A stretch of 64,000 bases of DNA, taken from contig CAYOME010000002.1 in assembly GCA_964405015.1 (NCBI GenBank), positions 68,174-132,173 of the forward strand, in the 5' to 3' direction. This document shows, piece after piece, positions 20,724-38,322 of this stretch (positions within the stretch are counted from its first letter, which is position 1; each line of letters begins with the position of its first letter). This DNA is from an uncultured Candidatus Saccharibacteria bacterium. Its GTDB lineage: Bacteria > Patescibacteriota > Dojkabacteria > SC72. Both the position numbers and the translations under genes were made by a program. The notes below the pieces were generated by a model. It was given only the letters and a program-made list of their open reading frames with translations. It ran no database searches and had not been told where the DNA came from.

Positions 20724-21342
20724 AAGGATAATCGACTTGATTGTTTCAACTATTCTTTGGATATTAACTTCTCCCTTAATGCTTGTAATTTCTTTTTTAA
20801 TTAAAATATCAGATGGAGGGGAAATATTTGTAGGAACTCCAGTCAGATATGGCTTCGGAAAGAAATCTTTCTTTATGTACAAGTTTCGTACAATGATACC
20901 TAATGCTCATGAAAGAGCCATGAGTGAAGAAAACATTAGGGAAGAATTGTTAAGCAATCATAAGCTAGAAAAGGATAGTAGAGTAACAAGAATAGGGGGA
21001 TGGCTTCGCAATACCGATATGGATGAGCTACCTCAATTGATAAATGTAATACTTGGTCAAATGAGCATGGTTGGTCCAAGACCCTTTTACGACGAAGAGA
21101 TAAAGTATCATTTAGAGAAATATCCGAATGATATACAATATTTTAATGATATATTTAAGGCGAAACCTGGATTAACAGGAATCTGGCAAGTCTCTGGAAG
21201 AAATGAAATACCCTTTAGAAAACGATTACAAATGGAAAGCTACTACGCAACTCACCCAAATATCCTAAAAGACATCTATATACTTCTTAAAACCCCCTTT
21301 GTAATTCTCACTCGCAAAGGTGTAAAGGGAAGAAATATATAG
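20695..21342 (+). CDS. Initiating undecaprenyl-phosphate sugar phosphotransferase (bacterial sugar transferase family, WbaP/PglC-like)
   Basis: N-terminal TM helix, then MYKFRTM, MSMVGPRP and QVSGRNE motifs of PF02397. Confidence 0.7.
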   Translation: MSMMLYRIAKRIIDLIVSTILWILTSPLMLVISFLIKISDGGEIFVGTPVRYGFGKKSFFMYKFRTMIPNAHERAMSEENIREELLSNHKLEKDSRVTRIGGWLRNTDMDELPQLINVILGQMSMVGPRPFYDEEIKYHLEKYPNDIQYFNDIFKAKPGLTGIWQVSGRNEIPFRKRLQMESYYATHPNILKDIYILLKTPFVILTRKGVKGRNI

Positions 21343-21399
21343 ACCCAGGTCTGTTAATTTAGCTCATACCTAAGATAAAAGGTTAGACTAGGGTCTACC
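21340..21399 (-). repeat. Conserved intergenic element, copy A (reverse orientation): palindrome TAGAC-N4-GTCTA plus GACCTGGGT box
   Basis: The reverse complement reads GGTAGACCCTAGTCTAA-(31 nt)-CAGACCTGGGTCTA. Same spacing (46 nt) as copies B-D. Confidence 0.6.
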
Positions 21400-21405
21400 A
21401 ATGAT

Positions 21406-22020
21406 ATGCGAGATGTTGTTGTAATAATAAAATCTGTGAACTATTCCGAAGCCGATAAAGTTTTGACTGTATTTGGTCGAAATAGCGGGAAATTTACTCT
21501 TTTTGCAAGAGGTATTAGAAAGATAAATAGTAAAAACAGGGGGAATATGCAAACTCTTTGTATCAGTGATATATCTTTTCATGAAGGTAAGGGACTACCT
21601 TTGTTAATAGAATCTTCTTTTTTGTTTACACCTAACACTGATGTATTAAAGAATAGAACTGAAAATCTAAGAAGAGTATTAATCATGTTGAATAAAATTC
21701 TTGCTGAAAATGATCCTAATGTAAAAGTATTTAATATGCTGAAGAGCGTTTTAGAAAAAGATTTCAATACAGAATCAACAAATCGTTTCAGAGTTATCTT
21801 TCTAAAAGAGATGGGTTTTCTTCAAGATTTTAGTATGTGTAATATCTGTGGTGTTAACGAAGGACTCGAATATATGGATGTTTCCAGCTTTGCTCTTCTT
21901 TGTAAAAACTGTTACAGTAAGGTAGGAAAGTGTTACAGATTAGGTAAAAATCCATATACAGAAGAATTCTTTACGCAGGCTTTAGATATATATGTTAAGA
22001 GAGTAATAGAAGAGATATAG
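21406..22020 (+). CDS. recO: DNA repair protein RecO
   Basis: N-terminal OB-fold segment ...IIKSVNYSEADKVLTVFGRNSGKFTLFARG... and a C-terminal CNICG...LLCKNC zinc finger. Confidence 0.6.
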   Translation: MRDVVVIIKSVNYSEADKVLTVFGRNSGKFTLFARGIRKINSKNRGNMQTLCISDISFHEGKGLPLLIESSFLFTPNTDVLKNRTENLRRVLIMLNKILAENDPNVKVFNMLKSVLEKDFNTESTNRFRVIFLKEMGFLQDFSMCNICGVNEGLEYMDVSSFALLCKNCYSKVGKCYRLGKNPYTEEFFTQALDIYVKRVIEEI

Positions 22021-22022
22021 CT

Positions 22023-24098
22023 ATGAAATATACTGCTGCCCTAAAATATATATTTCTTTTTTTTCTTACAATCTTTTTTGTTCCAAAAGTTTTTGCACAA
22101 AATTATATTGAAATGAGTTCTGAGGGTGTAACTGTTGAAGCCAATATTAATGTAGATTTCTATTCCATTGTTAATGCAAACCCAATAACTGTAGAGATAG
22201 GGCAACCAAGTAATGTTGAGATTAGAGTTTTGTCACCTAGTGGATTGGGTATTTCTGGAAGACAGGTAGTAATTGTTTCCTCTGGATTAAATATTACTCA
22301 ACCTGTGACATTAACGAATGCGACTGGTAGGACAAATGGCTCTGTATATTCGAATGTACCTGGGACATATACAATCTGTGCTAAGGATACAACATTTGGA
22401 TATGATATTGTCATACAGAATTGTAAAACTTTGTATGTAGTGCCTGTCCCTATACCTTCTATTTTACCTGAACCCCAATATACAAAAGGTTTAAGTAATA
22501 TGGTTATGTGGAGTAGTTTAGGTAATAACTATCGATACAACGTTCAAGTAAGTGAATTCTCTGATTTCAATACAGTACTCAGTGAGTCTGGATATACAAC
22601 AAATACCTCTTTTGAATTTAATGGGCTGGAAGATGGAAAGATGTATTTTTACAGAGTTAGAGCCCAAAATGAATATGGTGGTGTAAGTAGTTGGTCTAAT
22701 ATTGTTTATAGTGTACAGGATAATGTGCCTCCAGTTATTGAAGTATTAGATCTTGGTAATGTAGGTGAGAATGATACTGTTAACTGGAGTGGAACTGATA
22801 TTGTTACTATGATCTTTAGGGTTAGTGATAACTTGCAGTTAGCTAGTGCAAAACCAATTTGTATTACCTCCTATGACATGAGCTATGTATGTACCAATGA
22901 TTACGTGCTAGAAGGAGATATTCTAACAGTTAATGTAAGGTTGGGAGATTTAGAAAGAGTATCTGGGGTATATTTGAGAGATAGCTATGAATTTTGTATA
23001 GAGGCAAGTGATACAGCTACAAATATTACAAAAATGTGTGATATTCGTATAAATATCTCACAAGGAGAGTATCCTGTCGAACCAGCAAAACCACCTGTTA
23101 TAGATAGAATTGAGAAGGGTTTAGAGGATTTAGATGTTATTTTGGATAATACTATCGGTAAATTAGATCCTACGGATCTTGATAGGGTAAGTACTACTAC
23201 ATCCATAGTTACTGCTACGTCAGCAATCGCGATTGCTGCTGGTAGTTTTGGTAGTATTCCATATTTCTTTCTTCAGTTATTCCTAAATCTACTTTCTTGG
23301 TTGGGCTTTAGGAAGGGTGTTAAACCTGTTGGTTTTGTATATGACTCAGTTACTAAAGAACCTATTTCTCAAGCCATTGTAAGAATCTTTGATGAGGAAA
23401 ACCGTATTGTATGGTCTGATGTTACTGATTCTAAGGGATATTTTAGTGCTAGCTTAAAAGATGGAAAATACAGGATTGTTGTTCGTGTTCCTGGGTATTT
23501 GTATCCTTCTAATGTTGTATTTGGTAAGGAGGATTATCCTTTAACCAATGTTTACCATGGTGAGGAGTTTACAATAACTTCAGATGATGAACCAAACTTT
23601 GCTGTTCCTTTGGATCCTCTCGAAATATCAAAATTACGAATATCTTTTGAAACAATTTGGGCTAGATTTAAATTTCTAATTAATATATTGCATGTTTTGT
23701 TGTTTGTATTTGGTCTAGTCTTTGCTTTGTATACTTATTACAATTTCCCTTCTACATTGTCCTTAATTGTATTACTTTTGTATATACCTTCTTTCTTCTT
23801 TATCTTACGATATATTTTTGTTGTTTCTGATGAATATGGAATTGTTAAAAACAAAGATGGAGAAAGGCTTGAGGGGGTAGTTGTTGGTTTGAGGGAATCT
23901 GAATTCGACAAGATTATTGCTAAAAGGGTTACTGATTCTAGGGGTAGGTATAGGTTTCTTGTAGATGAGGGCCGTTACTATATTGAAATATTAGATACTG
24001 GATACAAAGTAGAGGATATTGAGAGTGGGGATGAGGTATTAGTTAAGAAAGAGGAATTGGTTACAAGGGATATTGTATTATCAAGGATTGAAGAGTGA
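22023..24098 (+). CDS. Large surface protein with signal peptide, Fn3-like domain and a C-terminal TM + CarboxypepD_reg-like module (paralogous to the C-terminus of the 2184-aa protein)
   Basis: Signal/anchor MKYTAALKYIFLFFLTIFFVPKVFA. Fn3-like YRYNVQVSEF...YFYRVRAQNEYGGVSSWS. The C-terminal block LGFRKGVKPVGFVYDSVTKEPISQAIVRIFD...GKEDYPLTNVYHGEEF...IAKRVTDSRGRYRF is alignable to the giant protein's C-terminus. Confidence 0.6.
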   Translation: MKYTAALKYIFLFFLTIFFVPKVFAQNYIEMSSEGVTVEANINVDFYSIVNANPITVEIGQPSNVEIRVLSPSGLGISGRQVVIVSSGLNITQPVTLTNATGRTNGSVYSNVPGTYTICAKDTTFGYDIVIQNCKTLYVVPVPIPSILPEPQYTKGLSNMVMWSSLGNNYRYNVQVSEFSDFNTVLSESGYTTNTSFEFNGLEDGKMYFYRVRAQNEYGGVSSWSNIVYSVQDNVPPVIEVLDLGNVGENDTVNWSGTDIVTMIFRVSDNLQLASAKPICITSYDMSYVCTNDYVLEGDILTVNVRLGDLERVSGVYLRDSYEFCIEASDTATNITKMCDIRINISQGEYPVEPAKPPVIDRIEKGLEDLDVILDNTIGKLDPTDLDRVSTTTSIVTATSAIAIAAGSFGSIPYFFLQLFLNLLSWLGFRKGVKPVGFVYDSVTKEPISQAIVRIFDEENRIVWSDVTDSKGYFSASLKDGKYRIVVRVPGYLYPSNVVFGKEDYPLTNVYHGEEFTITSDDEPNFAVPLDPLEISKLRISFETIWARFKFLINILHVLLFVFGLVFALYTYYNFPSTLSLIVLLLYIPSFFFILRYIFVVSDEYGIVKNKDGERLEGVVVGLRESEFDKIIAKRVTDSRGRYRFLVDEGRYYIEILDTGYKVEDIESGDEVLVKKEELVTRDIVLSRIEE

Positions 24099-24150
24099 TT
24101 TGTATTGAAAAATCTTTAATCTATTGGTATTATTCTGTGTTCATTGAACT

Positions 24151-24223
24151 GGGTGTATAGCTCAATTGGTAGAGCAAACGGCTCTTAACCGTTAGGTTCA
24201 GGGTTCGAGCCCCTGTACACCCA
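24151..24223 (+). tRNA. tRNA-Lys: tRNA-Lys (anticodon CTT)
   Basis: Hand-folded cloverleaf with acceptor GGGTGTA/TACACCC, D-stem GCTC/GAGC, anticodon stem AACGG/CCGTT with loop CTCTTAA, and T-arm CAGGG-TTCGAGC-CCCTG. Discriminator A. CCA not encoded. Confidence 0.8.
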
Positions 24224-24373
24224 AAGCTAAAGCGTCTCTTGTATATCCCATAGCTATTAATTCCCCTACAAAGTCTTTATTTTAAATAGACAATTTGTTT
24301 CCAAGCTTACTAGCTTTTATAATTCTTACTGCAAAGTGGTAATATTGTTTATATAATCTCTTGAATTAAAAAC

Positions 24374-24844
24374 ATGATAGAAAACAATCGATTAAAAAGC
24401 CTTTTAAGAGAGTTTAATATAAAAGGTTATGCAGATTCAAACTCAAAATATATTGATAACGGTAAGAATGGGAAAGTTTTAAATCTTGTAATTGGTAACT
24501 ATACATATGAGGATGAATTCTACGGAGGAGAACCATATTCAGGAAATGAAACTATATGGGAAGAAGGTAAGGATATCTTTAGATGTGTGTATTGGGGGAA
24601 GGTAGCTAATGGTATCAATTTCTCTGATATTTATAGTTTCCTCAGAAAAGCATTATCAAAAGGTCCAGATGGAGAATTAGTACATAGGGGACCTAGTGAA
24701 TATGTAGAAGGTAATTTGAAGTATACAAACAGTGTAGAAGGAAATATTGAAGAGTTTAGACAAGTAGAGAAAATCTCTATGAATGAAAAAGAGGTCTATG
24801 TCGCATATTTTGTCGGTGGTAGAGTTAATGTGCAGAAGGAATAG
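24374..24844 (+). CDS. Hypothetical protein (156 aa)
   Basis: ORF only. Confidence 0.3.
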   Translation: MIENNRLKSLLREFNIKGYADSNSKYIDNGKNGKVLNLVIGNYTYEDEFYGGEPYSGNETIWEEGKDIFRCVYWGKVANGINFSDIYSFLRKALSKGPDGELVHRGPSEYVEGNLKYTNSVEGNIEEFRQVEKISMNEKEVYVAYFVGGRVNVQKE

Positions 24845-24896
24845 CTTCTGAAATCGAAATGAGAATATAATTCAGGGTATTCATATTTTAAACCTT

Positions 24897-25631
24897 TTAC
24901 TCTATCTTCTGATATCCCATTACTTCAAAATTGCCACCATCTCTTTGTATTTCCTCCATGAAGACATCAACCTCTTCCTGAGATAGGACTCCACCAGCCA
25001 TATGTTCTTCTAAAGCAGATCTCTTTTCATCAAGAAAATCAGATATCTCTATTCCAACAGGGTTATTTCTCATATATGAGTCAGAGAGAAGGAATTCGGA
25101 GACATAACAAGGTTTTAGACCATCCTTAATTTGTTCAGGAAAAAACCCGTTATCTCTACAATATGGATATGTAGCATCAAAAACAGTAGTTGCTAAATTT
25201 CTATGATCTCTGTGATTAATCCACCTTATATCCTTTGAAAAATCATTTATTATCTCGAAAGGGTTATGTGTTATTACGATATCAGGCTGAAAATCTCTTA
25301 AGTGGTATACTATTTTCCCTATATTCTCTATTGAAGCTTCAAATTCTCCATCCGGAACATCAAGATTAAAAATTTCATCTTCTTTCAAACCAAGTTTTAA
25401 TCCCGCAGAAATTTGAGAATTAAGCCTAATCTTTCTAAAATCGTTATTTGAGAAATTTCCCTCGTGCATTCCTTTATCACCATTTGTTGCAATTATGGTT
25501 CTTACTTTCTTCCCATCTTTTATTAATCTTGTAATCGTTCCTCCACATATGATTTCAGCATCATCCGGATGTGCTAACACTACTAATACTCTCTCTTTAT
25601 TCCCAAATATTTCTAAGTAAGAATCAATCAT
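24897..25631 (-). CDS. PIG-L/LmbE-family N-acetylglucosaminyl deacetylase
   Basis: VLAHPDDAEIICGGTI and ...HRDH... metal-binding motifs of the LmbE-like family. Confidence 0.65.
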   Translation of the reverse strand: MIDSYLEIFGNKERVLVVLAHPDDAEIICGGTITRLIKDGKKVRTIIATNGDKGMHEGNFSNNDFRKIRLNSQISAGLKLGLKEDEIFNLDVPDGEFEASIENIGKIVYHLRDFQPDIVITHNPFEIINDFSKDIRWINHRDHRNLATTVFDATYPYCRDNGFFPEQIKDGLKPCYVSEFLLSDSYMRNNPVGIEISDFLDEKRSALEEHMAGGVLSQEEVDVFMEEIQRDGGNFEVMGYQKIE

Positions 25632-25795
25632 TATTTCTTAAAAGAAAAATATTAATACCTGATTATATCACTTACAATTTAAAGCTTCTCTTACATATCC
25701 TATAGATGCTCAATTCCATCTTAAATGTTGTCATAATAGTAAATATTTCTCCTAGGCTTACTCTATTGTTGTCTTGTATATTTGAGATATAATAA

Positions 25796-26695
25796 ATGTA
25801 TAAATTTAGGATAGTAAAAATGGAAAATAGTAATGATCAAAAAGTAAATGGTAAAGAAATGAAAGAGAAGGAAGTAGTTAAATCACCGAAAAAGAATCTT
25901 CTACTATATATAATTCTTGGAATAGTCTCTTTCCTTTTCATTTCGTTTATATGTCTTGTAATAGTTCTTTTTGTTACTCATAAAGTGCAAATTATAAAAG
26001 ATGGAGATAACAATCCGTATACTCCAGAAATAGTTGAAGACAAGGATAAAGATGGAGTTGATGATTTACTACCAAATGATGAAAAGGGTGATGAATCTAA
26101 TGAAGAGAAGGTAGAGAATACTCCTGATGAGGTCAGTATTAAATTGGTAGATGGTAAGGAATTAGTTGTAAACATTGAAAACTCTGAATGCGATAATACA
26201 GGTTTTCAAATTATTGAGCACAATGAAAAAATGACTAGGTATGCAGATAATCAGAATATGTATTGTTCATCATGGTACGAATTAGAATATTTTGTTGATG
26301 AAAATGCAATGACGAACTACTACTCAAAAGGTACCGCAAAATATCCATTGGAAGCAGAAATAATTGAGGGTGTTACATATACGTATATTGCAAAATATGA
26401 AGGTGAGACTGAGGATGATTGGGGATATGGTCTTGCATATCAATGGTTTCCTGTAACGAAGGTTAAAGGATATGAAGCATCAAAGATTGTTAGCTATGAG
26501 AATAGATTGTACAGGGAAGCGAATATTAAGGAAGGTGCTTTGAAAACAAATCTTTGTGTCTTTAATTTGAATAAAGTAGATAACAAATTGTCTGGATATT
26601 TGGTATTTAGTGGAGCTGCCTCATATGGTAGTGAAGTTAATTACTGTAATGATCTTAGCGACATGGAGACTTTTGGTTTAAAGCTTGGTTTGTAA
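25796..26695 (+). CDS. Membrane-anchored hypothetical protein with an acidic linker
   Basis: N-terminal TM LLLYIILGIVSFLFISFICLVIVLFV, then a D/E/K-rich segment. Confidence 0.35.
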   Translation: MYKFRIVKMENSNDQKVNGKEMKEKEVVKSPKKNLLLYIILGIVSFLFISFICLVIVLFVTHKVQIIKDGDNNPYTPEIVEDKDKDGVDDLLPNDEKGDESNEEKVENTPDEVSIKLVDGKELVVNIENSECDNTGFQIIEHNEKMTRYADNQNMYCSSWYELEYFVDENAMTNYYSKGTAKYPLEAEIIEGVTYTYIAKYEGETEDDWGYGLAYQWFPVTKVKGYEASKIVSYENRLYREANIKEGALKTNLCVFNLNKVDNKLSGYLVFSGAASYGSEVNYCNDLSDMETFGLKLGL

Positions 26696-26747
26696 GACTT
26701 GTAGTATGTAAAATATGTGTAAAATCTTTTCTTGAAAAGGATATCTT

Positions 26748-28346
26748 CTATACAGGCTTAGACATGTACATTCCAGTTTCATTAAAACCTCTCTTTTTAT
26801 AATATTGTTTAGTTCCGATAGCAGTAATTACGGAAATCTTTTTAAATCCTTCATCTTTGCTTATTTCTTGAGCTTTCTCTATCATTTTCTTACCCAAACC
26901 AAGATGTTGAGATTCTCCAGAGCTTTCATCCCCAATATTTACTAAAGAACCATATACATGTACCTCCCTTATTATTGCATGTCCATTAATCTCATCAATA
27001 TATGAATCTTTAAGAGGTAATGAAAGTCTTAAAAATGAACAGATCTTGTCTGATGTTTTAGTTTTGTATGAAATGAAATATTCATCTGAAACTGTAGTAT
27101 GGTAATTGAGTATCTCTAATTCTAAATCCTCCCATGTCACTCTCTCATCCTTTATTTCTCTACTTCGGATATCTTGAATACTTAGACCTAAACGTTTAAT
27201 TTCCCTCTCTGCTATTTCTCTAAAATTAGTAGACTTATTTCCATCCACTATCTCATTTGAAGGAATATCTCTTACAATCCTGGTTAGTCTTGTATATCTA
27301 GGTGTATTAGGAAGGATATTTACAAACAAATTCATTAATTCATCTTTAGAATACGGCTTGTATTTACCTTCTCTGTAATATTTCTCAAGCAAAGTATTAG
27401 ATATTATCGAAGTAGGGTAGATCTTTAATTCATCTGGAGAATATTCTTTATTCCAAAGCATATTAAAATCCAAAATATCTTTTTCCACTGATGAACCATA
27501 TAGATTGGGCATCCAATGAGCATGAATTTTAAAACCAGCAAGTCTTAACAATTCAAATGCTTTTTTGGTTTCGGTAGTGCTATGACCCCTTCTATTAAGT
27601 TCTAAGATTTTGTCATCTAAACTCTGTATCCCTATTTGAATCTTAGTAGCACCCAACTTTCTTAACCTAATGACTTCTTCAGGTGTAATGTAATCAGGTC
27701 TAGTTTCTAGAACTAATCCTACATTTCTACATACCGTTGTTTCATTGTATTTTTGGACTTCAAGAAGTTGTTCCCAAGAAATATCATTAATCCCTTCCTC
27801 ATTTTTTTCAAAAGAGGAATCACCAAAGCTATTCATAGCATCAAAACATCTCTTTACAAACCAAATGATGTATGATTCGGGGTAGAAGGAACAAGTACCA
27901 CCTAAAATTATCAACTCAACCTTGTCAGTATTATGACCAATATTTTGCAATGCCTTTATACGATTGTATGTTTGGTAGAATGGATCAAAATCATTTTTAA
28001 AAGCCCTCTGAGCCCCTGGTTCACTAGCTATATATGATTTAGGCATACTTGGGTCATTAGGGCAGAATATACAGTTCCCAGGACACCCAAAGGGCTTCAT
28101 GAGTACCGTAACAGTAGCCACTCCAGATTGAGTTCTAACAGGTTTCATCCTGATTCTCTCCTCAATATCCTTGTTTAGAGTAATCTCCCCATCATTAACC
28201 AACACTCTATATGCTTCTACCAGTTCATCATGTCTATATAACCCTTTCCCATCCTTTGGAAAACGCTTAAGAATACCCTGAAGAGAATTCTCCCTCCAAA
28301 ACCTCGTACCCTCAATCTCTTTGAAAATCTTTTTAAAATCATCCAT
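26748..28346 (-). CDS. elp3: Elp3-like tRNA-modifying radical-SAM / GNAT acetyltransferase
   Basis: PFGCPGNCIFCPN radical-SAM cluster motif after an N-terminal basic region. C-terminal GNAT domain (...HLGLGKKMIEKAQEISKDEGFKKISVITAIGTKQYYKKRGF). 532 aa, the size and architecture of archaeal/eukaryotic Elp3. Confidence 0.75.
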   Translation of the reverse strand: MDDFKKIFKEIEGTRFWRENSLQGILKRFPKDGKGLYRHDELVEAYRVLVNDGEITLNKDIEERIRMKPVRTQSGVATVTVLMKPFGCPGNCIFCPNDPSMPKSYIASEPGAQRAFKNDFDPFYQTYNRIKALQNIGHNTDKVELIILGGTCSFYPESYIIWFVKRCFDAMNSFGDSSFEKNEEGINDISWEQLLEVQKYNETTVCRNVGLVLETRPDYITPEEVIRLRKLGATKIQIGIQSLDDKILELNRRGHSTTETKKAFELLRLAGFKIHAHWMPNLYGSSVEKDILDFNMLWNKEYSPDELKIYPTSIISNTLLEKYYREGKYKPYSKDELMNLFVNILPNTPRYTRLTRIVRDIPSNEIVDGNKSTNFREIAEREIKRLGLSIQDIRSREIKDERVTWEDLELEILNYHTTVSDEYFISYKTKTSDKICSFLRLSLPLKDSYIDEINGHAIIREVHVYGSLVNIGDESSGESQHLGLGKKMIEKAQEISKDEGFKKISVITAIGTKQYYKKRGFNETGMYMSKPV

Positions 28347-28359
28347 ACCCGAATTATAT

Positions 28360-28420
28360 GGTAAACCCTAGTCTAATAGAAGGGGGTGTGGGAAAGGGTT
28401 AACCTACTGACCTGGGTATG
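28360..28420 (+). repeat. Conserved intergenic element, copy B
   Basis: GGTAAACCCTAGTCTAA-(32 nt)-CTGACCTGGGTATG. The GACCTGGGTA box also supplies the last codons (TYPGQ*) of the flavoprotein gene on the opposite strand. Confidence 0.6.
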
Positions 28421-29648: not shown

Positions 29649-29664
29649 ATATGCCCATTATACA

Positions 29665-29725
29665 GTAGACTAGAGTCTACTAGAATGGCTATGTTGCAAG
29701 GTGGGAGCGGTGACCTGGGTATGGT
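29665..29725 (+). repeat. Conserved intergenic element, copy C
   Basis: AGTAGACTAGAGTCTAC-(31 nt)-GTGACCTGGGTATGG between the divergent flavoprotein and ndk genes. Confidence 0.6.
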
Positions 29726-29753
29726 AAAATATGTAATTAATTTGAGGTATTGT

Positions 29754-30356
29754 ATGGTAATGATATCTAAGAATAAAGAGAAGTCTTTAGTAGTTTTTAA
29801 ACCTGATGTAGTTCAGAGGCAAATAGTTGGAGAATTAATCTCAAGGTTTGAAAGAAAAGGTTTCAAGATCGTGGGAATGAAAATGCTTGTTCCAAGCAGG
29901 GAACTCGTTGGTAAGCACTATGAAGATAAGAAGGAATACCTAATTGAGACTGGGGAAAAAGCAAAGAAAGGAGCTATTGCAAGAGGTGAGGATGTAAGTA
30001 ATTGGGACTCATTAACTAGGGAACAATGGATCCGGGAATCAAATATTAACTATCTTACTTGTGGTCCAGTTATTGCCCTTGTTCTCGAGGGGTTTGGAGT
30101 TGTAGCTGGAGTAAGGAAAATGTTGGGTAGCACTAGTCCTGCAGATGGAGATGTTGGAACAATTAGAGCGGATTTTTCTCTTGATTCTTTCGCATTGGCT
30201 GATGAACAAGGGAGGGTAACTAGAAGCATGGTTCATGCATCAGATAGTGTGGAGAATGCAGAAAAAGAAATAGGGCTTTGGTTTAATGCTACTGAAATTT
30301 CAGAATATGAAACCGCAGCAGAAAAGATATTCTATGATGTAGGGTGGAGTAATTAA
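29754..30356 (+). CDS. ndk: Nucleoside diphosphate kinase with a ~55-aa internal insertion
   Basis: SLVVFKPDVVQRQIVGELISRFERKGFKIVGMKM and a C-terminal ...NMVHASDSVENAEKEIGLWF (catalytic His). The track ORF starts at 29685, but that extension lies inside the repeat element. ATG 29754/29760 is the likelier start. Confidence 0.7.
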   Translation: MVMISKNKEKSLVVFKPDVVQRQIVGELISRFERKGFKIVGMKMLVPSRELVGKHYEDKKEYLIETGEKAKKGAIARGEDVSNWDSLTREQWIRESNINYLTCGPVIALVLEGFGVVAGVRKMLGSTSPADGDVGTIRADFSLDSFALADEQGRVTRSMVHASDSVENAEKEIGLWFNATEISEYETAAEKIFYDVGWSN

Positions 30357-31006
30357 AGCTTAAGAATATCTTCTACAATTAATCGTTTTTTCTCACTCAA
30401 ATTAGAATCTTTCTTTTCGATCTCTACTTCCTGAATAGAGATTTCTCCATCAAAAAATTTCTTTAATCTTTCGAAATCTTTCTCGAGAATATCTTTCAAT
30501 GTAGGATTGTAAAGTGCTACGGCAGGATGATACATTGCAAAAACTGGGATACCTGTACTATGTTTATATACCTGCCCATGAGCAGAAGATATTTTTAAAT
30601 CAGGAACAAACCTCTCAAGTGCATGTTTCCCAAGTGTAATGATAATCTTTGGTTTAATGAATAGAAGTTCAGCATTAAGCCATGTTCTACAAGCATCTTT
30701 TTCTTCAGGTAAGGGTTCTCTATTAGCAGGGGGTCTGTATTTAACAATATTTGTTACATACACATCCTCTCTTGAATATTTAACAATCTTTAGTAAGCTA
30801 TCAAGTAATTTCCCTGCAGCTCCTACAAAAGGTCTTCCTTCTTTATCCTCATTCATGCCAGGTGCTTCTCCAACAAAAACTATACCTGATTTTGGTATCT
30901 TCAATTCATATACAGGTTGTGTAGCAATATGCTTTAGTTTACAGCTGTTATGTAATGAAAAATATTCATGTATTTCTTTTAAACTATTAAAATCTTCAAT
31001 CCTCAT
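30353..31006 (-). CDS. Uracil-DNA glycosylase, family 4
   Basis: GIVFVGEAPGMNEDKEGRPFVGAAGKLL (GEAPG motif) and ...HPAVAL region. 4-nt overlap with ndk on the opposite strand. Confidence 0.7.
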   Translation of the reverse strand: MRIEDFNSLKEIHEYFSLHNSCKLKHIATQPVYELKIPKSGIVFVGEAPGMNEDKEGRPFVGAAGKLLDSLLKIVKYSREDVYVTNIVKYRPPANREPLPEEKDACRTWLNAELLFIKPKIIITLGKHALERFVPDLKISSAHGQVYKHSTGIPVFAMYHPAVALYNPTLKDILEKDFERLKKFFDGEISIQEVEIEKKDSNLSEKKRLIVEDILKL

Positions 31007-31061
31007 ATCATCATTATATCAACGAATGAAGAATTCCATACTATATACATTGGAAATTGAT

Positions 31062-34000
31062 TTACGCTCTTTCTACTTTAAGTCTAGTATTTATATATAT
31101 CTTACCCTTTGATTTGATAGTTGTCTTACCATCAATGATCCTAATGCTGTTATCAGCACTTTCAATTGCAAAATTACCGCTCTCATTGAGATCAAATGAA
31201 TATCTACCTTTTTCATCAGTGATTCTCTTTGCAACAATTTTTTCAAAATCTTTATCCTTAAGAACTAATGTAATGTTTGAAGCTGGAGTACCATTTGGAT
31301 ATGTTACTTTACCTAGTTTTTTACCCCTTCCACTAATACTTTTTATCAAGACAAAGACTGTAGGAATATACAAAAGAAGAAGTACTAGGTTAATGAGGTT
31401 TGATTCTTTGTTGTAGACATATATAGCAATGGTTAGGCCAAGTAGGAAGATTGCACAGTTAAGCAAAGGTAATATTAAGGATATCCCACTTCTTAAGACT
31501 GTTAATATTTTCTTTGTAGCTATATCTTCTTCAGGATCTAAAGGTATTACAATGTTTATTTCATTTTCTACTAATCGAACTTTTTCTCCATGGTAAACAT
31601 TTGAGAAAGGATAGTCTTCTTTTCCAAGGATTAATCTTGAAGGGAATTTGAAATCCCTTTTCTTAATATCAAGTATGTAATCCCCTGTATTTAGACCGAG
31701 ACGGAATTTACCTTGTCCGTCAGTAACGCTTGTATCTACTAATTTCTGGGAGAGATCATATACCCTAACGATAGCTTGTTGAAGGGGAGCTCTCGTAATA
31801 GAATCATATATATATCCAGCTGGTAATCTCTTCCTTCTAAATCCCAATGTACTTAATATATTTACAAATATTTGAGATATGGAATATCCTAATTGACCAA
31901 TATTTCCGAATATCGAGGCAAAACCAACAGATACTGTTACGGCTGTAGTCGTTGCAGCCACTGTTGTTAAATCTTCAGTCTGAATGTTTCCCAATGGCGT
32001 GTCATTTAAAGAATCTAAGGCTTTTGTTAAGGCACCTTCTACAGATTCTGTAATGTTCTTGAAAAGATTTGCACTGCTTGATGGAATATTCACTATTTCT
32101 TTTGATATCTCTTCTCCTTGTCCACCAGTACCACTTAGACCATCTGCGATCCAATACATAACCCCAGAGATACTAGCTTGAGATACGGTGACATTAGAAC
32201 CCTCAACTTCTTTTTTCTGAGGGAAATTACCAGTGTAAAGTATTCCATTTGGACAATCTTTGTTTACCTCTTCTAAGGAAATTGCTTCTGGACATATTCT
32301 AAATGCATTATCATTATCCTTTTTGATAACGTAGAGGGTAAATTTATCAGTTAATCCATGGGATTCATTTATCTTTACAACACTCTTACCCTCTTTAGGG
32401 GATGATTTAATTATTGCATTACTCCAATCTCTGTTGTCAGTGAATGAAATAGGGAGATCAGCAATTATATATTCTTCAGTAAGAACCCTTATCTTCTGTA
32501 CTCCAGTTTGTGCACCTTCCAGACTACTTACATCAATATCTGTATTGTCTAAAAGTATTGTGGATATATCTTCTGGTTTGTTTACAATGATAGAATATGT
32601 TTTCCCTGTATTACTCTCAATGTAGTTAGTTTCTACATTTGCTGAGTTAATAGCTTTAGCTCTAAAGGAATATTCAACACCTGGTTGGAGATTTCTAAAT
32701 ATTACTCCACTTGTATTGCCCCAAGAGGCATAGCTCCCCCAAACAGGAGTATCTACTAATGATTGAGTAGAGTAATCAAGATATTTTCCAGATATTTTAT
32801 CCTGTATTGCAAATTTAGTTGCGGTAGGGTTTAGGTTCCTATCAAACTTTATCCTTCCGGATGTACCTCCAACAATTTCAAAGGTTAAATCTTTTGGTGT
32901 ATTAGCCCATGTTGTAACTGAGATATCTTCTGACCAAGAAGAGTAGACCTCTTCGGAATTAATACTCCTTACTCTAAAATTGTATGTAGTATTTGGTGGT
33001 AAGGTATTTAGTTTAAATACCTGAGATATCCTTTCGTCAGTATGTATCACTGCAGTATTTGTAAGTGTTCCATCATTAGTAATATTCCCATTTGTATTTA
33101 TGTCTACTATTTGGTATCTGGTATTAGAAGGGTTATTATTTTTGTTTACAACTACCTCTATTGAAGAAGAGCTTATAACTCTAGCCGAAAGGGTTGTTGC
33201 ATTGGAAAGGGTATATGTACTTACAACTTGAGAACATTCAGTTTCAATATTGTTAATATTTTTTGCTTTTACACAGAATGAATATTGAGTATTAGGAGTG
33301 AGACCTTGAAGAGTAATACCTGTATTTCCCCCTATTTCTTCATATGTTTTCCAAAGAATTTCAGAAGAGAGTGTATTTGTTGAAGGTGTAACATATTTTC
33401 CACTCTTTGTTTCGGTAAGAGTATATAGAGTTGTATTTATATTTCCTTGGTTGTTAACTACAATTTTTAATGTTGTAGTATCAATTGCTTCAACAGATAC
33501 AATACTTGGTGCTTTTACTAAGGTTGTAAATGTTACTTCATTACTAAAGTTTGTATCCACTAAATCAATATTCTGAGCTTTGGCTCTAAATACGTATGTG
33601 CTGTTTGGAATTAAACCATATATTCTTTTACCTTCAAGTGAACCTAATTGAGTGTATGTGGAATAGTGGGGGGATTCTTGCAACAACTGTGTCTCGGAGT
33701 TAAAGTAAAGACCTGTATTTTTCTCCTCGATCAAATATTTTGTAGAAGAAGAGTTGTTTAAAGGATCTATTTGAATGTTTACACTCTCAGCATCAAAATC
33801 TTCTGATGTAATCTCTATTAAGGAAGGTACCTCTGCAAAGGTAGATGCAGAAACGGTATTAGAGAATGCACTCTCTGCAAGATTGTTGTAAATCTTGAAC
33901 TTTCTTACATATGTTGTATTTGGAATTAGTGAGTCTTCAGTACATGAAGTAATATCACTTCCTAAACATGTTTTAATCAAATCTCCATTTTCATTGTATA

Positions 34001-37000
34001 CCTTAATTCCTAATACTGAATCTGTATATGCAGAAATATTCCAAGTTATTTGATTCTTTGAATCAACTGTAGGAGTTAATGCCGATATTGATGACAGAGA
34101 AGATGTAGATGAAACGGTTGAGGAGTATGCAGTTTCAATATTTTCTGTATTTCTACCTTTTACTCTAAAGGTATATGTTGTACCCGATTGTAATCCCGTG
34201 ACTGTAATGGAAGGTGTAGCTCCTTCTAAATGCCCCCAGAAAGCAGTAGGTACCAATTCCCCTGTCGTTAGATTTACGTACATTCCTGTAAAAGTTTCTT
34301 GTATTAGTAATTCTGTTAGATTAGGGTTTGTCTCTTTATCAATACCTACAGTCATTTGTGTACTCCCAATTGTATTTACTGAAGAAATACTAGGTACTAC
34401 TGCTAGAGTATATGCATTTACTTCTGAAGAATATGCTGATTCCTCACCTGCGAAGTTTCTTGATTTTACTCTAAAGGTATATTGGGTATTTGGAGAAAGA
34501 TTAATAGCGACATCAGTAGTACTTTGTATCCAATCTTGAATTCCATTACTACAATTAATACTTACGCATTCAAAGAATATTCCAGAATCGCCAGAGGAGA
34601 GATTGTTTACTCCTGTACCACTTAAAGAAATCGATGTTGTTGAGAGTGGTCCTGCATTTAATACAGGTACTGAAGAATGTGTATATATTGTTAAATCAAA
34701 GGAATATGCTGTCTCCACCTGATCATTGTTTCTCGCTTTTACCCTAAATGTATATCCCGTATTGTTAGAAAGGCTTGTTACATTCGCAATGTTTGTTGTT
34801 GTCCAGGTATTAATATTTGTATCACATGAACCTTCACAATCGAAGTAAAGTTCTCCACCATTTACTGGTTGAGGTGCAGATATTGTAATCGAGTTTGATG
34901 TCTTTGTTCCTTGATATTGGATCTCTGGTACAGAGATTAATGTGTAAACAGAATCTGAATTTGATGCTTGGCTTTCAGCCTCTGAGTTGTAAGCTTTAAC
35001 ATATCGAGTATATTGTTTGTTTTCTAAAAGACCAGTCTCATCACAATATGTGAGGTTTTCTCCAACACATGTTTTAACAAGATTGTTTTCCTCATCATAT
35101 ATTCTAATACCATCTTCTCCATTCGCATTATCTGTAAATGACCACCGAATTGATGTAGTTGAAAGACCAGTACCTGAGAGGGTAGTAGGTGATACTGGAA
35201 TATCTAATGTTCTAAATGTATTTGTCGAAGACCAATTACTTACTGATCCACTACTATCCCAGAAGCGAATTCTCCAGTAGTAGGTTGTACCATTTGTAGT
35301 TATTGCTGTTCCAGCATATGGTATTTCTGGTGATCTTGAATTGCTTGGTATTGGTGTTACTGCAGTTTGATTTGAATCCCACATTACGGTACCAGTGAAT
35401 GTTGCATTACTGTTTACCTCTATCTCGTAATATGTTGCAGTATCTCCAGTATCAGAGTCATTAAAGATTGCACTAAATTCAGGAGTAATATCTGTAACTC
35501 TAGTTGGATTGGTTAATCCTTCAGTTTGAAGAGAAGTAGGTAGTCCTGGGGTGGTGTTCATACCAAAACTGCTAGTAGTAGACCAATCAGAAACAGTTCC
35601 ACTGTTATCCCAGAACCTAATTCTCCAGTAGTAAGTAATACCATTTAATGTAAGAGTAGTACCTGCGTATGATATATCTGAACTTCTAGCTCCAATGGCT
35701 ATTGGTGTAATTGCAGTTTGGTTGGAGTCCCACATGACAGTACCTGTAAATGTGTTGTTAGTATTAACCTCTATTTCGTAGTATGTTGCAGTATCTCCAG
35801 TATCAGAGTCATTAAAGATTGCACTAAATTCAGGAGTAGTATCTGTAACTCTAGTAGGATTGGTTAATCCCTCAGTTTGTAGAGAAGTAGGTAGTCCTGG
35901 GGTCGTATTCATCCTAAATGTTGCAGTAGAGGACCATCCTCCAACAGTTCCATAGCTATCAGTAAATCTAATTCTCCAGTAGTAAGTAGTACCGCTTAAT
36001 GTAAGAGCTGTTCCTGCATATGTAACAGCAGGAATTTGAGATCCAGAAGCAACTGGAGTGGAAGCAACTTGTCCTGTATCCCACATTATTGTGCCTGTGA
36101 AAGTGTTGTTGGTATTAACCTCAATTTCATAGTATGCCATATTATCGCTATCAGGATCAGAGTAGGTTGCCTTAAAATCGGGAGTGATATCTGTTAATCG
36201 AGTAGGGTTTGTTAGATCATTTACCAGAAGTGCCGAAGGTGTCGTAGGAGCTGTATTCATTTGGAAAGTTGATACAGTAGACCATGCTCCTACAGTTCCA
36301 TAGTTATCAGTAAATCTAATTCTCCAGTAGTAAGTAGTACCGCTTAATGTAAGTGCAGTACCTGCATATGAAATATCTGAACTTCTTGTCCCAATAGCTA
36401 TAGCTGTCATTGAAACTTGTCCAGTATCCCACATAACGGTACCCGTAAAGGTATTGTTAGTATTAACTTCAATTTCATAGTAGGTTGCAGTATTCCCTGA
36501 ATTGGGATCATTAAAAATAGCACTAAATTCTGGAGTAGTATCAGTTACTCCAACAGGATTTGTAGCACCTTCAGTTAGAAGAGATGTAGGAGCTGTTGGT
36601 GCTGTATTCATTGTAAAATTCGCAACTGCAGACCAAGTTCCTACTGCCCCATTATTATCCCAGAACCGAATTCTCCAGTAGTAAGTAGTACCGTTTAAAG
36701 TAAGAGCAGTACCAGCATATGAGATATCAGGACTTCTTGCTCCGATTGCTGTTGCGCTCATCGCTACTTGTCCAGAATCCCACATAACGGTACCAGTAAA
36801 GGTATTGTTGGTATTTACTTCTATTTCGTAGTAAGTGCCTGTATTTCCTGCGTTCCCATCATTAAAGATTGCACTAAATTCTGGAGTAGTATCAGTTACT
36901 CCAACAGGATTTGTAGCACCTTCGGCTAGAAGAGATGTAGGAGCTGTTGGTGCTGTATTTAATACTACAAAGTTTGCAGTAAACGAACCATCGGCAGTTA

Positions 37001-37616
37001 CATTTGTGTTTGTTCTTGGATTTGCTGTAGAGCCATCACTCCATTGGGAAAAAGCGTAACCTCCATTTGGTACTGCGGTTACTGCTGTACCACTACTACC
37101 TCTACAAATTGATTGAGAGGTAGTACCCGAAAGAGTACCTCCAGTACCTGCTGTGTATGTTAGTGTATATCTAAGAAGGTAGTATGTAAGCGTAGTTGTT
37201 CCACATTCCCCACAGTCATCATATCTTGTACATGAAGCAGTTGTCGTAGAGCAGCTTGTATTGGTTGCTGTATATCCAGTAGGTGTTACCGGAGTACAAC
37301 TATCACAAGCACCACAATCAGGCTCACAGTTATCACAGCAGTATCCTTGACCAGCATAGAATTCTGAAGAGTAACAATTATCGGCACCTTCATATCTACA
37401 TCCTCCAGGTCCAGTACATACTCCTAATGGTGAATTATACTCACATCCACTCGGACAAGTTTGTGCCTCTATTGGTGAGGATTTCGGAGTAACAAGAAAA
37501 ATGCTTAAAAAAGTTGCAACAAAAAGTACAAAAAGTGTAAATATGAAAAGAAAATTCTTCTTATTTTTAGTTCGAACTCTAATCATTATTTTTGTTACTT
37601 CCTTTTTTTCTTTCAC
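31062..37616 (-). CDS. Giant cell-surface protein (2184 aa): N-terminal anchor, Cys-rich module, >12 Fn3-like domains including 5 near-identical tandem copies, C-terminal TM + CarboxypepD_reg-like module
   Basis: N-terminal TM FLFIFTLFVLFVATFLSIFLV. A 20-Cys segment (CPSGCEYNSPLGVCTGPGGCRYEGADNCY...CCDNCEPDCGACDSCT). Repeated ...TYYWRIRF.D..G.VG.WS... Fn3 signature. C-terminal LGFRRKRLPAGYIYDSITRAPLQQAIVRVYD...GKEDYPFSNVYHGE...IVAKRITDEKGRYSF. Confidence 0.75.
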   Translation of the reverse strand: MKEKKEVTKIMIRVRTKNKKNFLFIFTLFVLFVATFLSIFLVTPKSSPIEAQTCPSGCEYNSPLGVCTGPGGCRYEGADNCYSSEFYAGQGYCCDNCEPDCGACDSCTPVTPTGYTATNTSCSTTTASCTRYDDCGECGTTTLTYYLLRYTLTYTAGTGGTLSGTTSQSICRGSSGTAVTAVPNGGYAFSQWSDGSTANPRTNTNVTADGSFTANFVVLNTAPTAPTSLLAEGATNPVGVTDTTPEFSAIFNDGNAGNTGTYYEIEVNTNNTFTGTVMWDSGQVAMSATAIGARSPDISYAGTALTLNGTTYYWRIRFWDNNGAVGTWSAVANFTMNTAPTAPTSLLTEGATNPVGVTDTTPEFSAIFNDPNSGNTATYYEIEVNTNNTFTGTVMWDTGQVSMTAIAIGTRSSDISYAGTALTLSGTTYYWRIRFTDNYGTVGAWSTVSTFQMNTAPTTPSALLVNDLTNPTRLTDITPDFKATYSDPDSDNMAYYEIEVNTNNTFTGTIMWDTGQVASTPVASGSQIPAVTYAGTALTLSGTTYYWRIRFTDSYGTVGGWSSTATFRMNTTPGLPTSLQTEGLTNPTRVTDTTPEFSAIFNDSDTGDTATYYEIEVNTNNTFTGTVMWDSNQTAITPIAIGARSSDISYAGTTLTLNGITYYWRIRFWDNSGTVSDWSTTSSFGMNTTPGLPTSLQTEGLTNPTRVTDITPEFSAIFNDSDTGDTATYYEIEVNSNATFTGTVMWDSNQTAVTPIPSNSRSPEIPYAGTAITTNGTTYYWRIRFWDSSGSVSNWSSTNTFRTLDIPVSPTTLSGTGLSTTSIRWSFTDNANGEDGIRIYDEENNLVKTCVGENLTYCDETGLLENKQYTRYVKAYNSEAESQASNSDSVYTLISVPEIQYQGTKTSNSITISAPQPVNGGELYFDCEGSCDTNINTWTTTNIANVTSLSNNTGYTFRVKARNNDQVETAYSFDLTIYTHSSVPVLNAGPLSTTSISLSGTGVNNLSSGDSGIFFECVSINCSNGIQDWIQSTTDVAINLSPNTQYTFRVKSRNFAGEESAYSSEVNAYTLAVVPSISSVNTIGSTQMTVGIDKETNPNLTELLIQETFTGMYVNLTTGELVPTAFWGHLEGATPSITVTGLQSGTTYTFRVKGRNTENIETAYSSTVSSTSSLSSISALTPTVDSKNQITWNISAYTDSVLGIKVYNENGDLIKTCLGSDITSCTEDSLIPNTTYVRKFKIYNNLAESAFSNTVSASTFAEVPSLIEITSEDFDAESVNIQIDPLNNSSSTKYLIEEKNTGLYFNSETQLLQESPHYSTYTQLGSLEGKRIYGLIPNSTYVFRAKAQNIDLVDTNFSNEVTFTTLVKAPSIVSVEAIDTTTLKIVVNNQGNINTTLYTLTETKSGKYVTPSTNTLSSEILWKTYEEIGGNTGITLQGLTPNTQYSFCVKAKNINNIETECSQVVSTYTLSNATTLSARVISSSSIEVVVNKNNNPSNTRYQIVDINTNGNITNDGTLTNTAVIHTDERISQVFKLNTLPPNTTYNFRVRSINSEEVYSSWSEDISVTTWANTPKDLTFEIVGGTSGRIKFDRNLNPTATKFAIQDKISGKYLDYSTQSLVDTPVWGSYASWGNTSGVIFRNLQPGVEYSFRAKAINSANVETNYIESNTGKTYSIIVNKPEDISTILLDNTDIDVSSLEGAQTGVQKIRVLTEEYIIADLPISFTDNRDWSNAIIKSSPKEGKSVVKINESHGLTDKFTLYVIKKDNDNAFRICPEAISLEEVNKDCPNGILYTGNFPQKKEVEGSNVTVSQASISGVMYWIADGLSGTGGQGEEISKEIVNIPSSSANLFKNITESVEGALTKALDSLNDTPLGNIQTEDLTTVAATTTAVTVSVGFASIFGNIGQLGYSISQIFVNILSTLGFRRKRLPAGYIYDSITRAPLQQAIVRVYDLSQKLVDTSVTDGQGKFRLGLNTGDYILDIKKRDFKFPSRLILGKEDYPFSNVYHGEKVRLVENEINIVIPLDPEEDIATKKILTVLRSGISLILPLLNCAIFLLGLTIAIYVYNKESNLINLVLLLLYIPTVFVLIKSISGRGKKLGKVTYPNGTPASNITLVLKDKDFEKIVAKRITDEKGRYSFDLNESGNFAIESADNSIRIIDGKTTIKSKGKIYINTRLKVERA
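35200..36960 (-). repeat. Five tandem ~349-351-bp near-identical repeats (116-117-aa Fn3 units) inside the giant gene
   Basis: The recurring DNA block ccagaaNNNaattctccagtagtaagtaNtacc appears at ~35272, 35621, 35971, 36321 and 36668. Protein units begin NTAPTAPTSLL / NTTPGLPTSLQ and end ...TYYWRIRF(W/T)D..G.V..WS....F.M. Confidence 0.85.
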
Positions 37617-38226
37617 TGTATGATCCTAAAAACCAACCCCCAAGAAGGAGCGCAGGAATCAATATTATTAAAAATATATATTTAATCTCGAATTTCTCAT
37701 CATCTACTTTCTGCTCATCATCTAAAGTGATCTTTGCATTCTCATCCTTAACTACAGAAAGTGCAAACAAATCTTCAATATCTTTTTCTCCAACCTTAAT
37801 CTTTATTTCATGGCTCCTCTCTTCTAAATTCTGAATACTAAAAAGTACAAACCAATTACCATTTTCATCAACAGTTGCAGAATACTCCTGATCTAATATA
37901 TATATTGAGATATTATCATTAGGATTACCAATTCCTGAGATTTTAACGGTATCTTGATTGTGAACTTCAATATCTCCATCTTCATTTAACTCTGCTTCCT
38001 CGTTATTTATTGCAACGTAATCCAAATTGGGATGCCTAGTAAATGCATCCTCTTCTGCAAGAAGTGGATTTACATTTAAAATGAGTAAAAATGCTGTAAT
38101 TATTAGAGAGAAGGAGCTTTTTATTATTTTTTGCATGAATATATTTATAAAATATATAGCTTGAATGTGGATTGGTACAACCCTTTCCACTACTAATATT
38201 AAAGCAGAATTGATTAAAGCTATCAA
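37579..38226 (-). CDS. Secreted/anchored hypothetical protein (N-terminal signal, C-terminal TM)
   Basis: SFSLIITAFLLILNVNPLLA signal-like segment and C-terminal IFLIILIPALLLGGWFLGSY helix. Immediately upstream of the giant surface-protein gene. Confidence 0.4.
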   Translation of the reverse strand: MIALINSALILVVERVVPIHIQAIYFINIFMQKIIKSSFSLIITAFLLILNVNPLLAEEDAFTRHPNLDYVAINNEEAELNEDGDIEVHNQDTVKISGIGNPNDNISIYILDQEYSATVDENGNWFVLFSIQNLEERSHEIKIKVGEKDIEDLFALSVVKDENAKITLDDEQKVDDEKFEIKYIFLIILIPALLLGGWFLGSYSERKKGSNKNND

Positions 38227-38259
38227 TGATATTTATCACCTAGGAACTATGAGACACTA

Positions 38260-38322
38260 GGTAGACCCTAGTCTACTGGAATGCTGTCGTGTAGGGCTAT
38301 TTCTAGTGACCTGGGTACATGT
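38260..38322 (+). repeat. Conserved intergenic element, copy D
   Basis: GGTAGACCCTAGTCTAC-(31 nt)-GTGACCTGGGTACATG between the DEAD-box helicase and the secreted-protein gene. Confidence 0.6.

Follow-up and report, generated by a model that had tools for sequence, protein, structure and literature searches.

An intergenic doublet of inverted palindromes at fixed spacing, a putative low-copy dispersed repeat in Candidatus Dojkabacteria

A short intergenic element occurs four times (copies c1 to c4) in a 64-kb stretch of DNA from a Candidatus Dojkabacteria genome (WS6, Patescibacteria/Candidate Phyla Radiation (CPR); guanine-cytosine (GC) content ~32%), here called the window (contig CAYOME010000002.1, positions 68,174 to 132,173). 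The repeat unit is ~58-60 bp long and consists of two inverted 14-16-bp near-palindromes, with the full form GTAGACC-N2-GGTCTAC. The closest described systems are small mobile repeats and paired operators. Bacterial miniature inverted-repeat transposable elements (MITEs), such as the Correia elements of Neisseria, are 100-155 bp long, have inverted-repeat ends, lie in intergenic DNA near promoters and can alter the expression of their neighbours. Paired palindromic operators, including NrdR boxes and tandem LexA boxes, are spaced at roughly helical-repeat distances near promoters. GTAG-tagged repetitive extragenic palindromes (REPs) have 5-13-bp stems and 2-4-nt loops; their GTAG tag is unpaired at one end of the palindrome, and they form inverted dimers (bacterial interspersed mosaic elements, BIMEs) 20-100 bp apart (Di Nocera et al., 2013; PMC3733652). 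REPINs are described as REP doublets mobilised by REP-associated tyrosine transposases (RAYTs) (Bertels and Rainey, 2011; PMC3116915, PMC3337134).

The element shares with GTAG REPs and BIMEs its short extragenic palindromes (5-7-bp stem, 2-4-nt centre, a GTAG start in many sites), their arrangement as inverted pairs 20-100 bp apart with a spacer of conserved length and variable sequence, a location between co-directional genes in three of only four copies, possible singleton remnants, and vertical inheritance with patchy loss. It differs in that GTAG lies inside the stem at both ends, whereas REPs carry an unpaired tag at one end, and in that REPs reach tens to hundreds of copies, compared with 4 loci in 64 kb here and no RAYT seen. 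With REPINs the likeness extends to two inverted REP-like sequences and a spacer acting as one unit, whose ends are predicted in several copies to pair into a long hairpin when single-stranded, and to lineage-specific variants common to the copies within a genome. Unlike in REPINs, the long hairpin is not kept in all copies here (c3 and its counterpart in the relative L015 do not form it), covariation is absent, and the spacers are not conserved in sequence among copies as REPIN spacers usually are. Like MITEs and Correia elements, the element is a small non-coding intergenic unit with inverted-repeat ends that lies next to promoters, can affect neighbouring expression through a change in upstream promoter sequence, and leaves filled and empty sites between related genomes; it differs in its length (~58 bp), in having no demonstrable TA duplication, in that each end is itself palindromic, and in that no parent insertion sequence is known.

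With GTAG within the stem, a low sampled copy number, no RAYT seen and no provable duplication, the element is REP-dimer-, REPIN- or MITE-like in build and spread and no proven member of any of these families. The searchable literature yielded no report of REP- or MITE-type repeats in CPR/Patescibacteria; as a type of bacterial repeat the element is ordinary, and what is new is its occurrence in this lineage. Our preferred interpretation, to which we assign a probability of roughly 55%, is a low-copy dispersed repeat of the REP-dimer, REPIN or MITE type, whose two ends are protein-recognition sites. A first-pass annotation of the window had listed such a REP/MITE-like repeat as its alternative explanation, and this is the one that fits best.

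That annotation had described a palindrome, TAGAC-N4-GTCTA, followed at a fixed distance by a second box, and the four copies are present as it had placed them, far above chance. The exact palindrome is found in three of them (21384-21397, 29666-29679 and 38262-38275) against 0.05 expected per window, and at least three occurrences were reached in 0 of 100 shuffles; the c2 palindrome (28362-28375) has one mismatch, TAAAC on the + strand. The string GACCTGGGT is exact in 4/4 window copies and the box GACCTGGGTA in 3/4, c1 ending in GGGTC. Distances from palindrome start to box start are 46, 47, 46 and 46 nt, as annotated. A further motif, TGGAATG, had been assigned to two copies; it is exact only in c4, and c3 reads TAGAATG.

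The informative orientation is the reverse of the one used in the first-pass annotation. On the strand of the downstream gene, all four copies run from the upstream stop codon through a distal site, a 30-31-nt spacer and a proximal site to the downstream −10 box or ATG; every copy has the same orientation relative to its downstream gene. The copies and their parts are as follows.

c1: 21340..21399, + strand (gene strand), in the gap between the Bac_transf and RecO genes
c1 distal site TAGACCCAGGTCTG: 21340-21353, + strand; its TAG is the Bac_transf stop codon
c1 spacer: 30 nt, AT-rich, + strand, between the distal and proximal sites
c1 proximal site TAGACTAGGGTCTA: 21384-21397, + strand, followed by CC; RecO ATG at 21406
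c2: 28360..28420, − strand (gene strand), in the gap between the HI0933 flavoprotein and Elp3-like radical SAM genes
c2 distal site CATACCCAGGTCAG: 28420-28407, − strand, coding for the last HI0933 codons; HI0933 stop at 28406-28404
c2 spacer: 31 nt, C-rich, − strand, between the distal and proximal sites
c2 proximal site TAGACTAGGGTTTA: 28375-28362, − strand, followed by TATAAT at 28358-28353 and the Elp3-like ATG at 28346
c3: 29665..29723, − strand (gene strand), in the divergent ndk/HI0933 gap
c3 distal site CATACCCAGGTCAC: 29723-29710, − strand, followed by a 30-nt C-rich spacer
c3 proximal site TAGACTCTAGTCTA: 29679-29666, − strand, followed by the extended −10 box TGTATAAT at 29664-29657 and the HI0933 ATG at 29648
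c4: 38260..38319, − strand (gene strand), in the gap between the DEAD-box helicase gene and a small open reading frame (ORF) plus a 2184-aa surface-protein gene
c4 distal site TGTACCCAGGTCAC: 38319-38306, − strand, followed by a 30-nt spacer
c4 proximal site TAGACTAGGGTCTA: 38275-38262, − strand, followed by CC
Conserved block GTGTCTCATAGTT near c4: 38257-38245, − strand; its counterpart in the relative L028 is GTATCTCATAGTT

The intergenic location reported for all copies holds. Pfam matches support the flanking genes (Bac_transf/RecO; Elp3-like radical SAM/HI0933; HI0933/NDK; DEAD-box helicase/small ORF and 2184-aa surface protein). The c2 copy does, as had been noted, encode the last codons of an opposite-strand gene, HI0933 (…YPGQ, then stop). 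Copy c3 is truly intergenic because the 223-aa ndk ORF is over-extended, its true start being the ATG at 29760; the same over-extension through c3 (29685-29759) is called by gene callers in the relatives L015 and L016. We rejected c3 as a coding N-terminal extension of NDK: all relatives begin with M(I/L)xKNKEK, and the extension diverges fast. Counting gaps of 30 nt or more, the window has 18 co-directional, 11 divergent and 8 convergent ones; the element, with only four copies, occupies three, one and none of them, respectively. The annotation had proposed that copies at random inside genes would mark a selfish repeat, and every copy is intergenic. This does not discriminate, because an intergenic location is expected under either explanation in so compact a genome.

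For comparison we used syntenic loci from nine relatives, fetched through HI0933 and DEAD-box homologues, whose named sources also place the window in Candidatus Dojkabacteria. They include L019 (about 74-78% protein identity), L015/L016 (a 92% relative) and L017, with L028 a second locus of the L017 genome. The c2 gap of L019 contains two full palindromes, GTAGACCCTAGTCTAC…TTAGACTAGGGTTTACC (in summary form GTAGACCCTAGTCTAC … TAGACTAGGGTTTACC), and its c1 gap contains GTAGACCCGGGTCTAC…TAGACTAGAGTCTAC; in both, the palindrome starts are exactly 44 bp apart. The centres, CCTA and TAGG, are reverse complements, and the pair is therefore inverted. Judged on its sequence, the second box is this palindrome over again, inverted and degenerate, and no separate motif. 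The asymmetric core common to both sites is ACCCNNGTC, so that the inverted core pair can be written ACCCNNGTC…GACNNGGGT, 44±1 bp apart. An origin of the pair by 44-bp tandem duplication was considered and rejected, as the inverted match is better than the direct one (13/14 versus 9/14 in the L019 c2 gap).

Across 11 copies, the start-to-start distance is 44 bp in nine and 45 bp in two, c2 being one of the latter, and the spacer sequences are unrelated although their length is kept. All copies have terminal inverted repeats, with a core ACCC(A/T)(G/A)GTC at the distal end that returns in reverse complement, as GAC(T)(A)GGGT, at the proximal end. In the proximal site, 5-bp arms flank a 4-nt centre and 89% of cells are paired over the 11 copies; the distal site, with 64%, forms such a stem in some copies only. 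Many sites open with GTAGAC (c3, c4 and both L019 copies), where TAG pairs with CTA at the other end and the tag is symmetric within the stem. The distal sites of c2-c4 are without GTAG and have a lineage-specific form, (C/T)(A/G)TACCCAGGTCA(C/G).

Several observations point to the arrival of this doublet by insertion. In a neighbour-joining tree of six concatenated proteins, L026, L027 and L025 are outgroups and the window, L017, L019, L021, L022 and L023 form the ingroup; the outgroups do not have the element. First, the c1 doublet is filled in the window, L019, L021, L022 and L023, always with 44-bp spacing, and empty in L017, L025, L026 and L027. At empty c1 sites RecO overlaps the upstream gene by 8 nt (ATGTCTAA/ATGTCTAG); at this junction L017 and the outgroup L027 are homologous. 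The alignment places ~60 nt of gained sequence between the upstream stop codon and RecO codon 3; in filled sites a new RecO ATG lies 1-8 nt past the proximal site and RecO codon 2 is lost. Second, c2 is filled in the window, L015 (nearly identical) and L019, and empty in L017, L025 and L027. Its empty site reads GGTCGTAG/TATAAT (L017, L027) and its filled site …GTAG/ACCC…TTTACCAG/TATAAT (L019), slashes marking the junctions. The c2 copy is old, because a derived GTTTA arm is common to the window, L015 and L019. It has also decayed: L021 and L023 keep a distal remnant only, inside the HI0933 C-terminus, and L022 keeps nothing. Third, c3 is filled only in the window and L015/L016, and the promoter region is uninterrupted in L017, L019 and L021. 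Finally, no doublet was found at the place corresponding to c4 in the L017 genome (L028), and no copy in about 33 kb of sequence from that genome.

Copies c2, c3 and c4, which are not orthologous to one another, have in common the distal variant TACCCAGGTCA(C/G) and the sequence ATTCYAG beside the proximal site, and their spacers are C-rich and G-poor (47-53% GC in a 32% GC genome). The orthologous c2 copy of L019 has none of these shared variants. Such sharing is the mark of copying from one master, not of independent origins. Taken with the filled and empty sites, it shows copy-paste spread of the unit by insertion within one Dojkabacteria sub-clade.

Ends and spacing have been maintained in place. 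Among five c1 orthologues, the sites are 65-72% identical and the spacers 39-43% (33% for random sequence), and in all five genomes the distance from right arm to right arm is 44 bp with no indel. Between the window and L015, the c3 spacer is ~60% identical and the sites match at 27/28 positions, the "degenerate" distal form included, with an 18-nt indel directly outside the element. Sites and distance are kept while spacers diverge, and therefore both ends and the spacing between them are maintained. The fixed spacing and variable spacer of the first-pass annotation are thus real and extend to the orthologues of other genomes, which makes joint recognition of the two sites reasonable. Its proposal of a bipartite protein site survives as paired recognition; the part that made the second box a different motif does not.

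The unit thus inserted into a very compact genome with leaderless-type promoters and survives only where it fits between a stop codon and the next −10 box or ATG. It supplied a new stop codon in c1 and c2 and forced a new start codon at recO. After insertion the spacer drifts freely, with both end sites and their distance retained. A protein may bind both ends together on DNA, perhaps as a dimer of dimers; it could be the enzyme that mobilises the element or a DNA-binding protein of the host. Side effects on the expression of neighbours are likely but secondary, since the downstream −35 region is displaced by the element and formerly overlapping genes are uncoupled.

Several points weigh against a dispersed repeat. 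Its copy number is low: the sampled DNA has four loci, all within 17 kb of the window, whereas classical REPs and REPINs are abundant. A doublet profile, with which the known copies all score E≤1e-5, found no others in 267 kb of Dojkabacteria DNA, and a single-site profile gave no additional degenerate copies. No transposase or RAYT-like (Y1/HUH) gene was found among the ~40 window proteins scanned. The same orientation to the downstream gene in all copies, and a proximal site abutting the −10 box in c2 and c3, are what a regulatory site would likewise show. A purely selfish element would not be expected to keep its ends in place over the long term, which calls for gene conversion or selection at the level of the host. 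A flanking TA pair can be drawn in c1 and the L019 copies (TA/GACCC…GGGTC/TA), but the right end always continues …CTAC(C), and with boundaries uncertain by about 4 nt no target-site duplication is provable. Finally, the branch shared by the window and L017 is short, and both loss in L017 and insertion after the L017 split stand.

Other searches concerned the wider distribution of the doublet. Within the 64-kb window, a full-length profile recovers just the four known copies, whose loci span 17 kb. An exact-pattern scan with TAGACNNNNGTCTA-N30-35-GACCTGGGT, a pattern too specific to the distal variant of the window lineage, gave one match in the genome collection (Dankookia, a GC-rich alphaproteobacterium, taken as chance) and none in the metagenome and viral collections. 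Among HI0933 relatives in metagenomes there were distant homologues only, in which the palindromes are absent, and there was no phage match for c4. An exact look-up of the window RecO found no entry.

The classical operator or non-σ70 promoter suggested by the first-pass annotation is disfavoured by insertion as a ~60-nt block, by shared variants and remnants, by a varying promoter position and by the unrelated genes downstream. A subtler form, rather unlikely in our view, is that insertion explains only how the sites arrived and that a dimeric or tetrameric host regulator now acts on two palindromes 44 bp (~four helical turns) apart. The proximal site would cover the −35/−10 spacer, and its occupancy would repress or loop the recO, Elp3-like, HI0933 and surface-protein promoters. 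With paired operators the doublet shares two similar palindromes at fixed spacing, one of them overlapping core promoter elements. The palindromes are 14-16 bp long with spacing fixed across paralogues and orthologues, and the ends are conserved in place while spacers randomise. In c2, c3 and the L019 c2 copy the proximal site ends 3-4 nt before TATAAT, inside the 17-nt spacer, and all four copies face a downstream gene start and lie within 17 kb of each other, as a local regulon might.

Unlike at known paired operators, the promoter position varies here, the genes are unrelated and block insertion brought the sites in. In c2 and c3, TATAAT follows the proximal site after 3 nt. In the c1 orthologues, where the spacers hold −10-like hexamers of their own upstream, 1-8 nt separate the end of the proximal site from the ATG, and in c4 the likely ATG is ~125 nt away; with the position of the site varying between copies, there is therefore no constant promoter geometry. 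RecO, an Elp3-like radical SAM enzyme, the HI0933 flavoprotein and a surface protein are functionally unrelated. In c2-c4 the distal site is one arm short, yet invariant in that form, and the closest sampled relative (L017/L028) is without the sites and retains the same genes and −10 boxes. No cognate regulator was found near the copies among the window proteins scanned, and the sole helix-turn-helix (HTH) gene, in an Xre/IrrE-like pair at 1571-2651, has a different inverted repeat. To our knowledge no described site fits both sequence and geometry among those of σ54, ECF-type sigma factors, LexA variants/Cheo-box, NtcA, FNR/CRP, DasR dre, CIRCE, CtsR and NrdR. A DdrO/IrrE-like control by the Xre and M78 pair (1.5-2.6 kb) was also considered and rejected, as its own promoter has the different inverted repeat and no TAGAC palindrome.

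A related reading, distinctly unlikely, combines mobility and control: the doublet may be a mobile operator cassette that, through copy-paste spread, unites unrelated housekeeping operons under common control. It would be recognised by a DNA-binding protein specific to the lineage, possibly a transposase domesticated as in REP-RAYT systems. If so, recO, the Elp3-like gene, HI0933 and the giant surface-protein operon would be co-controlled in a regulator-poor CPR genome with leaderless mRNAs, and the strict conservation of the ends and of the 44-bp spacing would reflect a host function.

An RNA role, in which the element is transcribed along with its neighbours and two hairpins or one long hairpin guard the upstream mRNA against 3' exonucleases, mark a processing site or structure the downstream 5' end, is very unlikely. 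Several copies do fold well: in window c1 and both L019 copies z-scores reach −4 to −6, mostly through a long stem joining the ends, which is also predicted in window c2 and c4. Three arm substitutions (c2 proximal GTTTA, L022 c1 proximal and window c1 distal) are G·U-compatible on the gene strand only. REPs, too, have often been proposed to act as RNA (PMC3733652). The compensatory changes that the first-pass annotation had suggested seeking are, however, lacking: paired cells (76% local, 69.5% long-range) do not exceed column shuffles, and double changes number only 1-2. In c2-c4 the distal hairpin is disrupted despite strict sequence conservation, and c3 and the L015 c3 copy can form the proximal hairpin only. 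None of nine terminator-like matches in 21000-39000 lies on an element, and there is no U-tract or terminator consensus. In Rfam 15 the sole window match is tRNA-Lys, with which ARAGORN agrees, and there is none at E≤1 in 28250-29850. We therefore rejected RNA structure as the main explanation, good z-scores for some copies notwithstanding.

The genome does make wide use of −10 boxes close to start codons. A match of at least 5/6 to TATAAT ends 3-13 nt (mode 6) before the start codon in 31% of genes, compared with 9% of random positions, and Shine-Dalgarno-like motifs are not enriched (9.7% versus 10.7%). Examples of this leaderless-type signature lie at 28353-28358, 29657-29664, 14890-14917 and 25780-25795. 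Adjacent genes often overlap by a few nucleotides, which suggests translational coupling. That the doublet is itself a compact, possibly bidirectional promoter for leaderless transcripts, with an inner TAGNNT (TAGACT, TAGGGT, TAGAGT, TAGTCT) as its −10 box, is highly improbable: it would suit a genome that relies on −10 boxes ~6 nt before the ATG with no Shine-Dalgarno signal, the TAGAGT of L019 c1 ends 5 nt before the RecO ATG, and a σ70-like TATACA-16-TAGAAT spans c3 on the ndk strand, but c2 and c3 have their own TATAAT or TGTATAAT downstream, retained in relatives without the element, the palindrome may be as close as 1 nt to the ATG or as far as about 125 nt from it, the distal copy lies over the end of the upstream gene with no target for a promoter there, and a promoter scan for the full σ70 consensus found no enrichment on the elements.

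We also made several observations at and around the four loci. The HI0933 tail of ~8 aa (…MQKTYPGQ, then stop; 28404-28430, − strand) is read from the distal site of the element in the window and L015, giving a protein of 414 aa, compared with 406-410 aa in relatives without the element. The ndk/HI0933 gap is 350-375 nt in L022 (9655-10000) and L023 (9627-10000), compared with 70-105 nt elsewhere. It contains tandem CTAGGACAGACCTCTGGGAT copies and GC-rich stretches, has no Rfam match, and includes a palindrome-like remnant, GTAGGATAGGGTCTAC, 7 nt ahead of TATAAT, with a possible distal partner at 36-37 nt, not 44.

A conserved non-coding stretch of ~120 nt lies 3' of c4 (38137-38258, − strand; L028 12370-12548, L029 ~12190-12215). 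It reads GTRTCTCATAGTT … TTGATA … AATTCTG … TATTAGTAGTGRAAA and precedes the small ORF and the giant surface-protein gene; so long a conserved leader is out of the ordinary for this genome, and a regulatory RNA or 5' untranslated region could account for it. The listed TTG start of the small ORF (38226) is probably wrong, since the ATG at 38136 gives 185 aa, compared with 183 aa in the L017 genome. In L028 (10001-11234; GCA_964621195.1) the DEAD-box helicase is called as two pieces, of 304 aa and 85 aa, which indicates a frameshift, a pseudogene or an assembly error.

Elsewhere in the window, the stretch from the Elp3-like gene to a 691-aa surface-protein gene, beside tRNA-Lys(CTT), holds different small genes in every relative, among them DUF5680, PIG-L, NADAR, DUF2726, DUF1653 and unknowns. 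It behaves as a variable island or integration hotspot, with the following extents.

Window: 24150-26700
L017: 12825-15000
L019: 12889-14071
L023: 13112-16276
L025: 12841-15515

The sequence TGGCGGGGTGGACGGGACTCGAAC (63078-63101, − strand) matches, in reverse complement, the 3' end of a tRNA (half T-arm, acceptor stem and CCA). ARAGORN and Rfam both call no tRNA there, and an integrated element may have left such a fragment at its border. The Xre-type HTH gene (2187-2651) has an overlapping neighbour, an M78 peptidase gene of IrrE/ImmA-like type (1571-2218) with a weak match to the spr1629 repressor/antitoxin, and a 35-bp inverted repeat (GTTCTGTGTTGTCAATTTATTACAACAGTGTGAAC) lies beside the pair in a divergent promoter region (2637-2671). 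This pair is a typical mobile-element or stress-switch module, unrelated to the palindrome doublet.

The prevailing view of CPR/Patescibacteria genomes is one of extreme streamlining, with few repeats and few regulators. The present case shows that a small palindromic doublet can invade gene gaps of zero length in such a genome, splitting an overlapping gene pair and forcing a new stop and a new start codon, and can then be kept for a long time with its ends and spacing conserved. Annotation is affected as well: ndk and the small ORF acquire spurious extensions through the element, and HI0933 gains an 8-aa tail. It also offers a handle for finding the protein that recognises its ends, which may be a transposase-like enzyme or a regulator.

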